A program made the position numbers and the translations under genes. A model generated the notes under the pieces. That model searched no databases. It was not told the origin of the DNA and saw nothing but the letters and a program-made list of their open reading frames with translations. A stretch of DNA of 64,000 nucleotides from Thermoplasmatales archaeon SW_10_69_26 (GTDB lineage Archaea; Thermoplasmatota; SW-10-69-26), in the NCBI GenBank assembly GCA_003009755.1, contig PXUB01000032.1, forward strand, positions 65,408 to 129,407, in the 5' to 3' direction. Shown one piece after another: positions 38,517 through 40,744 of this stretch (its first letter is position 1; the number at the start of each line of letters is the position of its first letter).

Positions 38517-40493
38517 ATGCCTGACGATGGAACCCTCGACGACGAGACTCCCGAGATCGAGGACGCCGAGGAGATGGTGGGCGACGAGCCCGGCGACTAC
38601 GGAGCCGCCAACATCCAGGTCCTCGAGGGCCTGCAAGCCGTCCGCAAGCGGCCGGGGATGTACATCGGGTCCACCGGCGACCGGGGCCTGCACCACCTCG
38701 TCTACGAGGTCGTGGACAACTCGATCGACGAGGCGCTGGCCGATCACTGCGACCTGCTACGCGTGACGATCCACGAGGACAACAGCGTCACGATCGAGGA
38801 CAACGGCCGCGGGATCCCCGTCGAGCAACACCCCAAACACGACCGCTCGGCGCTCGAGATCGTGATGACGGTCCTGCACGCCGGCGCCAAGTTCGAGACG
38901 AAGACCTACAAGGTCTCCGGCGGCCTGCACGGCGTCGGCATCAGCGTCGTGTGCGCCCTGACCGAGTGGATGGAGGCCGAGGTCCACCGCGAGGGCCAGA
39001 TCCACTACCAACGCTACGAGCAAGGCATCCCGTCCGACCCGGTCGAGGTCATCGGATCCACCGACCGCACCGGGACCCAGATCAGCTTCCGCCCCGATCC
39101 CGAGATCTTCGAGGACATCGACTTCGACTTCCTGACGCTGTCCACCCGCATGCGCGAGCTCGCCTATCTCAACCGCGGGCTCCGGATCGAGCTCGTCGAC
39201 GAACGCGAGCGCGACGACGAGGGCAACCCCAAGCAGGAGGCCTTCGAAGCCGAGGGCGGCCTCGTCGACTTCGTCGAGTGGATGAACCGCAACAAGGAGC
39301 CGATCAACAAGGAGATCGTCGCCTTCGAGGACACGAGGGAGGACATCGAGGTCCAGGTGGCGATGCAGTGGACCAGCGACTACACCGGCAACCTCCACAG
39401 CTTCGTCAACAACATTAACACGCACGAGGGCGGGACCCACGTCACCGGGCTCAAGACCGCGCTCACCCGCAACCTCTCCGACTACGCCGAGGAGAACAAC
39501 CTCAGCCCCGACGATCTCGACCTCAAAGGCGACGACTGCCGCGAGGGCCTGACCGCGCTCGTCTCGGTCAAGGTCCCCGAACCGCAGTTCGAAGGCCAGA
39601 CGAAGACCCGCCTGGGCAACAGCGAGGTCCGCGGCATCGTGCAAAGCATCGTCCACGACGAGCTGTCGACGTGGATGCTCGAGCACCCGGACGCGGCCGA
39701 CGCGATCGTCGAACGCGCCGTCAACGCCGCCGAAGCGCGTCAAGCCGCCCGGCAAGCCCGCGAGCTCGCCCGCCGCAAGGGCCTGCTCGAATCCACGAGC
39801 TTGCCCGGCAAGCTGGCCGACTGCAGCAACCGCGACCCTGCCAAGTCCGAGCTGTTCATCGTGGAGGGCGACAGCGCCGGCGGCTCGGCCAAGCAAGGCC
39901 GCGACCGCGACACGCAAGCGATACTCCCGCTGCGCGGGAAGATCCTCAACGTGCAGAAGTCCCGGCTCGATCGCATCCTGCAGAACAACGAGATCGAGGC
40001 GCTGATCCAGGCGCTGGGCACCAGCGTCGGCGAGGAGTTCGACCTCGAGGAGCTCCGCTACGACAAGGTCATCATCATGACCGACGCCGACGTCGACGGC
40101 GCCCACATCCGCACGCTCTTGCTCACGTTCTTCTGGAACTACATGCCCGAGCTCATCCGCGAGGGCCACGTCTACATCGCCATGCCGCCGCTGTTCCGCG
40201 TCCGCAAGGGCCAGAAGTCCGAGTACGTCTACAGCGAGGACCGCAAGGACCGGCTCGTCGACGAGTGGGGCGGCAACACCACCGTGCAGCGGTTCAAGGG
40301 GCTGGGCGAGATGAACCCCGGCCAGCTGTGGGAGACCTGTATGGACCCCGAGACCCGATCGCTGGGCCTGGTGCGCGTCGACGACGCGATCCAAGCCGAG
40401 CAGCTGTTCGACGTGCTCATGGGCGACAAGGTCGAACCCCGCCGCGAGTTCATCCTGGAGCACGCGGACGAGGTTCAGGTCCTCGACGTGTGA
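38517..40493 (+). CDS. gyrB: DNA gyrase subunit B
   Basis: GHKL ATPase motifs ([26 protein letters not shown]), Toprim EGDSAGG..., C-terminal ...[18 protein letters not shown]... Start at ATG 38517 ([10 protein letters not shown]...) rather than track 38433. Confidence 0.9.
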
Positions 40494-40499
40494 GTTGCT

Positions 40500-40640
40500 C
40501 GGCTGATCCGGAAGTCCGCTCGCTCCACCGCTTCGGGGGTCGCTTGCGTCCTTCCGGATGCCGGACGAACGCTCGACGTTGCGGGTCTCGCGTTCGTCCT
40601 CTCCGCAGACCGGCCTCTCCAGCGGCATGCCGGTCTGCGG
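40500..40640 (+). other. Three consecutive perfect stem-loops between the gyrB stop and the gyrB 3' remnant
   Basis: TCCGGAAG...CTTCCGGA, GGACGAACGC...GCGTTCGTCC and CCGCAGACCGG...CCGGTCTGCGG, each 8-11 bp stems. Confidence 0.55.
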
Positions 40641-40641
40641 A

Positions 40642-40744
40642 CCAAGCCGAGCAGCTGTTCGACGTGCTCATGGGTGACGAGGTGGAGCCTCGCCGCGAGT
40701 TCATCATGGAGCACGCGGATGAGGTCCAGGTGCTGGACGTTTGA
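40642..40744 (+). pseudogene. Diverged duplicate of the last 34 codons of gyrB (3' gene remnant)
   Basis: Encodes [33 protein letters not shown] versus gyrB ...[33 protein letters not shown]. The first 33 nt are identical; after that mostly synonymous substitutions (about 88% nt identity). Confidence 0.8.

Follow-up and report, generated by a model that had tools for sequence, protein, structure and literature searches.

Displaced copy of the gyrB 3′ end behind a three-hairpin spacer in an uncultured halophilic Thermoplasmata archaeon

We analysed a 64-kb window, i.e. the whole 64,000-nucleotide stretch of DNA under study, from an uncultured, halophilic salt-lake Thermoplasmata archaeon. The gyrB gene lies at 38517-40493 on the plus strand and encodes 658 amino acids with the Pfam domains HATPase_c, DNA_gyraseB, Toprim and DNA_gyraseB_C; the protein is 100% identical to GyrB of Thermoplasmatales archaeon SW_10_69_26. 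This gene is the functional copy. Its last 34 codons (copy 1) are repeated in direct orientation (copy 2) behind a 148-bp spacer at 40494-40641. The features of the locus are as follows.

38517-40493, plus strand: gyrB coding sequence, working copy (translation and Pfam domains)
40358-40493, plus strand: discordant 3′ segment of gyrB, putatively imported (maximum chi-square; left edge approximate, 40340-40367)
40391-40493, plus strand: repeat copy 1, last 34 codons of the working gyrB (alignment to copy 2)
40493-40504, plus strand: inverted copy of the repeat start, just past the stop codon (inverted repeat I8, MFE folds)
40506-40559, plus strand: hairpin 1 of the spacer (folds; 9-bp perfect lower stem, imperfect top)
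40563-40599, plus strand: hairpin 2 of the spacer (10-bp perfect stem)
40602-40641, plus strand: hairpin 3 of the spacer (13-bp perfect stem)
40642-40744, plus strand: repeat copy 2, non-coding displaced gyrB 3′ end (gap-free alignment to 40391-40493)
40716-40761, plus strand: terminal hairpin, made up of the copy 2 end plus 14 nt past its stop codon (inverted repeat I5)
40821-41192, plus strand: small membrane-type ORF of 123 amino acids (codon-position GC 0.80/0.56/0.88)
41189-41565, no strand assigned: MITE with 35-nt inverted ends (second copy at 17832-18262)
41562-42125, minus strand: nadM-type nucleotidyltransferase, cytidylyltransferase-like (Pfam PF01467; synteny in relatives)

An independent ENA contig (L001) is 100% identical to the window over 38452-41288, so that the order of gyrB, spacer and copy was seen twice, and a JGI contig (L002, 98.7% identical) likewise runs from gyrB through the spacer into copy 2. 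Since these independent contigs agree, the layout is not an assembly artefact. The initial annotation had described gyrB as followed by three perfect stem-loops, a 103-bp copy of its last 34 codons, a small membrane ORF, a MITE and nadM. We recovered each of these elements at the coordinates given above; the stems of hairpins 2 and 3 and the lower stem of hairpin 1 are perfect, and the top of hairpin 1 is not.

Copies 1 and 2 align over 103 bp without gaps, with 92 matching bases (89.3%) and an E-value of 7e-34 by BLAST within the window, and both terminate in TGA. The first 33 bases (40642-40674 in copy 2) are identical, and the following 70 nt hold 11 differences, nine of them synonymous and two non-synonymous (K to E, L to M); the contrast between 0/33 and 11/70 has a Fisher p-value of 0.015. 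At the 11 variable sites copy 2 carries T, G, G, G, T, A, T, C, G, G and T. It lacks a start codon, and its reading frame in the ORF list differs from that of gyrB. That frame is open back to 39671; frameshifting or read-through into copy 2 was nevertheless rejected as uninformative, because a crude manual estimate puts the share of sequences at such GC content that would be stop-free over 49 codons at about one third.

The affinities of copy 2 change along its length. Bases 40675-40713 are closest to L082, while bases 40714-40741 are closest to the working gyrB tail of L081, from which the final 28 nt differ at one position. The likeness to L017, L018 and L019 continues for 21 nt beyond the stop codon into the arm of a hairpin, and no such post-stop match to these three loci was found 3′ of copy 1. 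This hairpin (40716-40761) is homologous to the post-stop sequence of gyrB in L017, L018, L019 and L083, its arms co-vary lineage by lineage, and it is the native, terminator-like hairpin of the gyrB end. Copy 2 belongs to another gyrB allele type than the working gyrB end. The suggestion that the remnant came from a different allele is thus supported; the 3′ part of copy 2 and its hairpin match the nearest relatives. In L002, the two copies are identical over at least 55 nt, a lower bound set by the 55 nt of copy 2 that are visible there, and all five sites in this part that vary in the window agree with copy 1.

Comparison of gyrB with its relatives revealed a breakpoint inside the gene. The maximum chi-square position is 40358 against L081 and 40367 against L017, and mismatches to these loci rise from 6.7–7.8% before the breakpoint to 19.5–21.8% after it (permutation p ≤ 0.0005). 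Against the outgroup L020 there was no breakpoint, and the distance is constant along the gene. The discordance begins 25–50 nt upstream of the repeat boundary. Within the spacer only 34 nt could be aligned to L081, at 79% identity, yet gyrB as a whole is 93.3% and the small ORF 98.1% identical between the two. The last ~130 nt of the working gyrB, together with the spacer, are thus phylogenetically at odds with the closest relatives. None of the 120 best GyrB matches carries the window-type tail, and no donor was found among them; the closest is of the L020 type, with 39 of 45 amino acids shared.

The spacer consists of hairpins and contains no ORF. The sequence across the gyrB stop codon and the spacer start reads GACGTGTGAGTTGCTCGGC, and the junction from the spacer to the remnant reads GCCGGTCTGCGGACCAAGCCGAGCAG. 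Just past the stop codon, segment 40493-40504 matches the repeat start in inverted orientation, with 11 of 12 bases agreeing and one G-U pair in the folded form; in MFE folds it pairs with 40645-40656 and forms the 5′ arm of a stem that closes the whole cassette. A bulge-helix-bulge intron was rejected for this stem, which by inspection is a plain 12-bp helix without bulges. Hairpin 1 is conserved at the gyrB locus in five lineages (window, L081, L082, L017 and L018), and their alignment fold has 24 pairs, 13 of them with compensatory change. For hairpin 2, a 21-nt match occurs in the gyrB-nadM intergenic region of L018/L019 near the nadM stop codon, and a similar element lies 3′ of gyrB in L020. 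The 3′ foot of hairpin 3 is the junction to the remnant, and L081 and L082 have hairpins at the same position. Between the junction 40641/40642 and the sequence upstream of 40391 there is only a GCG..CC microhomology.

There is no other copy of the cassette in the 64-kb window or in the fetched loci, and viral contigs scanned with the repeat core, the hairpin-2 motif and hairpin 3 gave no cassette match; the apex of hairpin 1 gave 13 matches there, all to unrelated low-GC phage hairpins. Rfam searches of the whole window at the gathering threshold and of the region at E ≤ 1 returned only two tRNAs and one chance microRNA match. The motif CGTACTCNCG was rejected as the mark of a repeat family, with 1 match versus 0.73 expected. 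Clusters of GC-rich perfect hairpins are common in the intergenic DNA of the SW_10_69_26 genome: the window holds 14 hairpins with perfect stems of at least 10 bp, against 2–11 in shuffled sequences. A second closed hairpin cluster resembling the cassette lies at 8294-8446.

Downstream, the small ORF (40821-41192) has no Pfam match and is known only from the window species and two sister lineages, its homologues falling into two clusters. The stop codons of the small ORF and nadM overlap, and the MITE sits between them; its empty site ...CGCTAGTCC... is seen in L081, L083, L084 and L085, and the element is no part of the gyrB-tail duplication. The convergently oriented nadM is a conserved neighbour of gyrB in the clade. 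A look-up with its product gave no match for the 191-aa form that starts at TTG, and for the 187-aa form that starts at ATG only the same strain (L087). On the other side, 1.2 kb upstream of gyrB, an IS1595 transposase (36583-37323) is the sole mobile-element gene nearby according to Pfam. Elsewhere in the window, three identical 44-nt copies of the 3′ end of a tRNA-Arg gene flank that gene, with hairpin modules between them.

The same locus takes several forms among close relatives. L083 and L084 belong to the same species (gyrB 99.2% and nadM 98.1% identical) and have neither the spacer nor the copy; their order is gyrB, a single hairpin unit and the small ORF, which begins 82 nt past the gyrB stop codon. 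This empty site is consistent with precise excision, and in L083 the hairpin region past the stop codon resembles a hybrid of the two L081 hairpin units. In two sister lineages (L081/L086 and L082) the three-hairpin cassette recurs and ends at the same hairpin-3 foot, but the remnant behind it measures only 31 nt. Since the cassette and a shorter remnant are present in both, the structure predates the window genome. The initial annotation had raised the case of a remnant conserved in all relatives; the 31-nt form at the same site in two sister lineages agrees with such conservation, whereas its absence from L083/L084 does not. In L081 the tail types are swapped with respect to the window: the remnant is 93% like copy 1 of the window and the working tail is like copy 2, and the flanking repeats are only ~70% alike (by eye). 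A single recent event in the window genome therefore cannot account for the locus. Either the architecture is old and underwent later reshuffling, through recombination and the deletion of 72 nt, or events of this kind took place more than once.

Remnants of at least 31 nt occur only in lineages with the small ORF (window, L081/L086 and L082), and always in the gap between hairpin 3 and the small ORF. In relatives without the small ORF no long duplicate was detectable. L017 has at most a possible 13-nt remnant, and its contig stops before any small ORF could show. L085 is a mosaic, with a window-type small ORF (98.7%) beside an L081-type nadM (88.7% identical to that of the window). The populations of these strains and lineages co-occur in one JGI metagenome series, and the locus as a whole is a mosaic. 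It is an old, still recombining insertion and duplication in a hotspot, neither a recent gyrB replacement nor a gyrA split.

The explanation that we rank first, with about as much confidence as doubt, is that copy 2 does not code for anything and is a scar left when related but diverged chromosomes recombined and the old gyrB end was pushed downstream. The ancestor would have had gyrB followed by a short terminator-like hairpin and the small ORF, as in the same-species strain L083. DNA from a more distant lineage, bearing a gyrB 3′ end and the three-hairpin cassette, would then have entered. Its left join would be a homologous crossover within gyrB at ~40340-40367, and its right join at 40641/40642 either an illegitimate junction or the product of a circularised fragment inserting by a single crossover (Campbell-type). 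Behind the incoming gyrB end, the last 103 nt of the resident gene would have stayed in place. Both tails would have evolved as working gyrB ends in separate lineages, so that their differences are mostly synonymous. Later interaction of the direct repeats could explain both the identical stretches, if gene conversion homogenised 33 nt in the window and 55 nt or more in L002, and the empty sites, as recombination between the repeats would be able to delete the cassette again.

The initial annotation had proposed that an incoming gyrB replaced the native gene and left the old end behind. For the window genome this fits in part, because the gyrB end behind the breakpoint is discordant and copy 2 matches the relatives; what appears to have been exchanged is, however, only ~130 nt and the spacer, not the whole gene. 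Several observations also stand against the scar. The cassette with a 31-nt remnant is present in L081/L086 and L082, with the tail types swapped in L081, and no donor lineage for the working tail appeared among the 120 best GyrB matches. Hairpin 1 lies directly 3′ of gyrB in L017 and L018, both without a long duplicate, which makes the cassette as such, within the wider clade, native at this locus, and the small ORF with the remnant could be the inserted part. A discordance that starts 25–50 nt before the repeat is not predicted by simple Campbell insertion through 103 nt of homology. Finally, the scar leaves the 12-nt inverted copy of the repeat start behind the stop codon unexplained.

Behind rhs, cdiA and type VI secretion effector genes, orphaned or displaced 3′ ends occur that have been ascribed to homology-facilitated illegitimate recombination (model in PMC5361080). 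As in those arrays, an incoming 3′ end would have recombined through a conserved upstream part and moved the resident end downstream as a fragment without a start codon, which shares a conserved stretch with the new end and then diverges, and the repeats may recombine later. Both the internal breakpoint with a discordant end and the truncated, start-less old end downstream are present at gyrB. The arrays differ in carrying alternative toxin domains and immunity genes, whereas the gyrB tails are homologous housekeeping sequences with two amino acid differences, no obvious selective cargo and a hairpin cassette, not a gene, between the ends; moreover, the host is archaeal and there is a single displaced end. 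Campbell-type integration, which results from circular DNA with an internal or 3′ gene fragment, yields exactly the layout of the locus, a hybrid gene end, an insert and a hybrid truncated copy; such a product is unstable, because its repeats can undergo conversion or be lost by loop-out deletion. A natural circular donor is hypothetical here, and since the breakpoint lies upstream of the repeat boundary, this route would at the least also require a second crossover or a conversion.

If read as a recombination scar, the gyrB locus would be a clean natural example of between-lineage recombination reaching an essential housekeeping gene in uncultured halophilic Thermoplasmata. Its stages are found side by side in co-occurring populations: empty site, fresh-looking homogenised repeat, diverged repeat and trimmed 31-nt remnant. 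Such loci are of use where gene flow and the instability caused by repeats are to be estimated in archaea that resist cultivation. Caution is advisable in gyrB-based phylogeny and strain typing within the clade, because the last ~130 nt have had another history than the remainder of the gene. The displaced tail reveals no new gyrase biology.

The events may also have run in the opposite direction, a possibility that we take seriously but consider rather doubtful. In that case the cassette is native, the small ORF came in with a piece of donor gyrB tail, and copy 2 is hitch-hiking donor DNA. The donor would have had the small ORF directly 3′ of gyrB, and the fragment would start in the donor gyrB tail, with the right join formed by small ORF/nadM homology and the left one illegitimate at the foot of hairpin 3. 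The presence of hairpin 1, with its 13 compensated pairs, after gyrB in the duplicate-less L017 and L018 argues for this direction, as do the hairpin-2-like element in L020 and the confinement of remnants of at least 31 nt to the gap between hairpin 3 and the small ORF in small-ORF lineages. A donor-type order of gyrB, hairpin and small ORF exists in L083. In addition, identity between the window and L081 is 98.1% at the nucleotide level for the small ORF, against 93.3% for gyrB and 88.1% for nadM, the pattern expected of a recent exchange. However, a second, separate event is then required for the discordance of the working tail and spacer with L081 and L017, and the hybrid character of the L083 post-stop region suggests a deletion product and not an ancestral state.

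Direct repeats of a target 3′ end around a short structured insert are also what a miniature, non-autonomous integrative element would leave. Such an element would insert site-specifically at the gyrB-end hairpin, excise precisely and rely on an enzyme encoded elsewhere; the two repeats would be left and right attachment sites, and the insert would supply a surrogate gene end. Like integrative elements in the 3′ ends of tRNA and protein genes, the cassette leaves the gene intact, has an identical block followed by diverged sequence and is missing from same-species strains, where the empty site of L083/L084 is the expected product of recombination between the flanking hairpin units. Three hairpins and a closing stem between the post-stop segment and the remnant start are found in all three cassette versions (window, L081 and L082), and the tRNA-Arg gene with its three 3′-end copies and hairpin modules would be a parallel. 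Against this, the insert measures 148 bp and there is no integrase in it or beside it, the IS1595 transposase being the nearest mobile gene. Nor is there a fixed identical core, since the block spans 33 nt in the window and 55 nt or more in L002, while L081/L082 have another stretch of 31 nt, and the low similarity of the L081 flanking repeats fits poorly. The discordant segment reaches upstream of the repeat, and neither a second nor an episomal copy was found in the searched sequence, viral contigs included. We regard such an element as improbable. Slightly fainter still is the prospect that the three-hairpin cassette, closed by the stem between the post-stop segment and the start of copy 2, is a discrete mobile unit of an undescribed kind, which would target the terminal hairpin of a gene, duplicate the 3′ end there and excise precisely; the nested partial copies at tRNA-Arg would then be a second target.

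Selection may also have kept the remnant because it belongs to a functional structure, of RNA or DNA, within the gyrB 3′ UTR or the leader of the small ORF. Folds of the three cassette versions are far more stable than shuffled controls (z = -4.8, -6.2 and -4.7), and the window, L081 and L082 all retain the closing stem although it is built from different gyrB codons. Moreover, the remnant and the downstream arm co-vary (GAAGTT/AACTTC in L081 versus GAGGTT/AACCTC in L082), and hairpin 1 has compensatory changes. The structure would be a four-way junction in which the post-stop arm has two possible partners, the remnant and the gyrB tail, and by which transcript termination or processing, or read-through to the small ORF, could be controlled. 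However, the same-species strains L083/L084 manage without cassette and remnant, the Rfam searches gave no match, hairpin clusters like that at 8294-8446 abound in this genome, and DNA-level processes can also keep palindromes perfect. A functional structure, to which we attach a low probability, would cover the maintenance of the remnant and not its origin, and is compatible with the other explanations.

In the usual archaeal and bacterial arrangement gyrA lies directly 3′ of gyrB. By tblastn we found no gyrA in the 64-kb window, which is part of a 145,671-bp contig, i.e. within 38.5 kb upstream and 23.5 kb downstream of gyrB, in agreement with the initial annotation, which had noted that gyrB has no adjoining gyrA. 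The query was an approximate E. coli GyrA sequence; as a positive control it detected gyrA directly 3′ of gyrB in 5 Micrarchaeota loci. The missing neighbour might be taken to mean that the remnant marks a rearrangement that parted gyrA from gyrB, as had also been proposed, but this is very improbable. A gyrB gene tail-to-tail with nadM-lonB-prs, and without gyrA, is standard in all relatives with downstream sequence (L003, L004 and L018-L022, GyrB 75–85% identical), and L005 (72%) likewise has no downstream gyrA; L017, with only 205 bp downstream of gyrB, stands outside this comparison. In L003 and L004 the gyrB and nadM stop codons are 0–3 nt apart and there is no remnant whatever, while in the window the remnant comprises a gyrB end with its native hairpin and no gyrB-gyrA junction. 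The absence of gyrA beside gyrB is thus a trait of the clade, ancestral and unconnected with the duplicate.

Simple local tandem duplication with drift, or a diversity-generating retroelement with template and variable repeats, is suggested by two nearby direct repeats of which one is at a gene 3′ end and is equally hard to credit: duplication of tail and spacer together predicts a second spacer after copy 2, which is absent, and the tail differences cannot have arisen in place, since the 70-nt tail is 16% diverged against 1.3% between strains across the gene; for a retroelement, the differences are not adenine-specific in either copy, and Pfam scans of the neighbouring ORFs found no reverse transcriptase. 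Transposons and MITEs are recognised by terminal inverted repeats, a target duplication of 2–15 bp and several genomic copies. Insertion of the cassette in this manner was rejected, its duplication being 103 bp long, one arm of its closing stem lying inside the gyrB-derived repeat, and the cassette being single-copy in the available sequence. The MITE at 41189-41565, unlike the cassette, shows all three hallmarks.

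The initial annotation had described gyrB as being followed by a synonymously diverged duplicate of its own 3′ end, and this was confirmed. The last 103 nt of the gene (copy 1, 40391-40493) are repeated without gaps at 40642-40744 (copy 2, the remnant), with 92 of 103 bases matching and a spacer of 148 nt separating the copies. The region contains the following features:

38517-40493, + strand: gyrB, 658 aa, with all four gyrase B Pfam domains
40506-40559: spacer hairpin 1
40563-40599: spacer hairpin 2, perfect stem of 10 bp
40602-40641: spacer hairpin 3, perfect stem of 13 bp
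40748-40761: hairpin arm of 14 nt, pairing with the end of copy 2
40821-41192: small ORF, 123 aa; GC across the three codon positions is of the coding type, and Pfam gives no hit
41189-41565: MITE, with a second copy at 17832-18262
beyond the MITE: nadM-type gene, convergent with gyrB, with lonB next

The differences between the copies are unevenly distributed: bases 1-33 are identical and all 11 differences fall in the following 70 nt (Fisher p = 0.015). Nine are synonymous and two are not (K->E, L->M), and TGA ends both copies. An independent ENA contig is identical to the window over 38452-41288, and a JGI contig (L002, same species), 98.7% identical to the window, has the same gyrB-spacer-copy layout. 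An assembly artefact is therefore ruled out as the source of the duplication.

The separation of gyrB from gyrA, which the initial annotation had linked to the duplicate, turned out to be nothing special. We compared the loci of relatives whose GyrB is 92% (L017), 85% (L018, L019), 78% (L020-L022) or 72-76% (L003-L005) identical. In the window, and in all relatives whose contigs reach far enough past gyrB, this gene and nadM face each other tail to tail, with lonB, prs, a CARDB-domain protein gene and aglB beyond nadM, and tblastn detected no gyrA downstream of gyrB in any of these relatives. The query was an E. coli GyrA sequence; as a positive control, it found gyrA directly 3′ of gyrB in five Micrarchaeota loci. 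Therefore, the lack of an adjacent gyrA is the standard arrangement of the clade and is unrelated to the remnant. In one control locus (L012, Micrarchaeia) the GyrA match was split into residues 13-74 (12191-12376) and 69-836 (13748-15931); an intein or some other insertion in gyrA could account for the gap of about 1.4 kb.

To trace the origin of each copy, gyrB was compared with its nearest relatives, L081 (a sister lineage) and L017. Mismatches amount to 6.7 and 7.8%, respectively, up to about 40358-40367 and then rise to 19.5-21.8% until the stop codon. In the maximum chi-square breakpoint test only 1/2000 and 0/2000 permutations were as extreme for these two relatives; the same test against the outgroup L020 gave no breakpoint in gyrB. 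In this last segment the window lineage shifts from the L081/L017/L018 group toward L020/L004 (distance to L020 13.6%, vs 19.0% for L081), and L081, L017 and L018 remain nearly unmoved relative to each other and the outgroups. The spacer is equally discordant, as only 34 nt can be aligned between the window and L081, at 79% identity, and what follows copy 1 has no counterpart behind gyrB in L017, L018 or L019. Copy 2 resembles these three relatives as far as 21 nt beyond its stop codon, into the hairpin arm. It is itself a mosaic: its bases 1-33 are those of copy 1, bases 34-72 come closest to the second sister lineage, L082 (2/39 differ), and bases 73-100 to L081, whose working tail differs from the last 28 nt of copy 2 at 1/28 sites. 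The 76 nt following copy 2 are 96% identical to L081. For this genome, these alignments are most simply read as the arrival of a block spanning about 40358 to 40641, a new gyrB end plus the three-hairpin cassette, behind which the resident end would have stayed on as copy 2. The earlier proposal that an incoming gyrB displaced the old end is thus partly supported, over about 130 nt of gyrB plus the cassette, where the breakpoint and the relative-like end of copy 2 agree with it, but not for more of the gene, and the structure itself is older, polymorphic and recombining. Within gyrB, 7/28 differences between L002 and the window crowd into 31 nt (L002 1115-1145, window 39581-39611), which suggests a further short tract of recombination or conversion.

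A search with the small ORF gave matches only in very close relatives. Two of these, L083 and L084, are conspecific with the window (gyrB 99.2%, nadM 98.1% identical), and in both the gyrB stop is 82 nt from the small ORF start, with neither spacer nor copy; the 251-bp unit is thus a presence/absence difference inside one species. In L002, copy 2 equals copy 1 over 55 nt, up to the contig end, and five sites that vary in the window all agree with copy 1. This pattern fits gene conversion between the repeats, with the assembler presumably stopping at the longer perfect repeat. L081/L086 (gyrB 93% identical to the window) and L082 have three hairpins too, in matching positions, followed by a gyrB-end remnant of only 31 nt that includes a stop codon, its own complementary arm and the small ORF. 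As the L081 remnant is 93% like copy 1 of the window and its working tail is like copy 2, the two tail types are swapped between the lineages. Hairpin 1 is also found 3′ of gyrB in L017 and L018, both without a long duplicate, and across five lineages it has compensated changes in 13/24 pairs. Together with the sister-lineage cassettes, this places the origin of the architecture before this genome. In L017, CCTCGACGTGTAG lies at 3063-3075, about 85 nt past the gyrB stop and immediately after hairpin 1; these 13 nt may be left over from a gyrB end of the window type, at a length too short for certainty.

The gyrB-nadM interval is a hotspot. The genes are 0-3 nt apart from stop to stop in L003 and L004, 407 nt in L020, 1047 in L018 and 1068 in the window. 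The window's small ORF shares 98.1% identity with that of L081, with lower values in the flanks (gyrB 93.3%, nadM 88.1%), and only 75.6% with that of L082; in the mosaic contig L085 a window-type small ORF is joined to an L081-type nadM. This indicates recent exchange of the small-ORF segment between co-occurring populations. The cassette architecture, too, appears to be reshuffled by recombination among such populations, with L085 as an example. At the site of the window's MITE, the small ORF and nadM stop codons overlap (...CGCTAGTCC...) in L081, L083, L084 and L085; the site is empty there, and the MITE is a private insertion. It sits exactly between the overlapping stops, with TAG or TA duplicated at the target, so that both stop codons now come from MITE ends. 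The family (about 377 bp, 35-nt inverted ends, CTAGACTGCCGG...) also occurs at the ends of L017 and the start of L020, and relatives' contigs break at its copies.

Fold predictions for the window, L002, L081 and L082 all give an outer stem closing three hairpins, with a stability well beyond that of shuffled sequences (z = -4.8 to -6.2). The closing stem joins the segment immediately past the gyrB stop to the initial 12-14 nt of the remnant (window 40493-40504 with 40645-40656; L081/L082 post-stop arm with the ADEVQ codons of the remnant), and is kept although the remnant starts at different gyrB codons. This regularity could reflect selection on RNA structure, or a mechanism placing the repeat boundary at the hairpin foot. 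It would also suit a discrete mobile cassette, to which we give a small probability, as there is no integrase, the identical block differs in extent between strains, and neither a second copy in the window or the compared loci nor anything in viral contigs was found. A second intergenic cluster, at 8294-8446, has four hairpins within an outer stem of 13 bp (z = -8.3, -101.5 kcal/mol); one of the hairpins (TCCGGAGACCG...CGGTCTCCGGA) is similar to spacer hairpin 3. Multi-hairpin clusters closed in this way may be general in the intergenic DNA of this genome.

Our data support recombination between diverged homologous chromosomes, leaving a working end that is hybrid, then an insert, then the old end in truncated form. 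Homology-facilitated illegitimate recombination would produce this layout, as would a circular fragment inserted by a single crossover; the direct repeats would later have undergone conversion and loop-out deletion. The differences between the copies are mostly synonymous because each tail evolved within the working gyrB of its own lineage. The founding event would have brought in either the cassette with a new tail or the small ORF with a hitch-hiking tail fragment. In every case the remnant adjoins the foot of hairpin 3, and the 31-nt remnants are possibly trimmed versions of the 103-nt remnant. The closest described analogue comes from rhs, cdiA and type VI secretion effector genes, where orphaned, displaced 3′ ends lying downstream have been attributed to the same mechanism (PMC5361080); the gyrB-end copy is a further example of this known kind of recombination scar.

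The sequence upstream of gyrB is not conserved among relatives, with a helicase in L020 and an HTH_10-domain protein in L019. Two further features concern tRNA loci:

1689-1765: tRNA-Arg(TCG) gene, with partial self-copies around it (region 1338-2093)
36583-37323: IS1595-family (ISXO2-like) transposase ORF, adjoining tRNA-His (37473-37545), about 1 kb upstream of gyrB

A third call, by ARAGORN at 57053-57148 (96 nt, 'tRNA-???', two-base anticodon), is probably a false positive, since Rfam has no tRNA there. The 5′ part of tRNA-Arg is present in three copies (1344, 1484, 1689; 78-84% identical), and a perfect 65-nt tandem repeat at 1561-1690 includes its anticodon arm. Its 3′ end and trailer form three 44-nt copies, 100% identical, at 1749, 1874 and 1988, with different hairpin modules between them. 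This arrangement has the look of repeated integration at a tRNA gene, of accretion there, or of tRNA-derived repeats, and shares with gyrB the general pattern of a gene-end copy, a hairpin insert and another gene-end copy.
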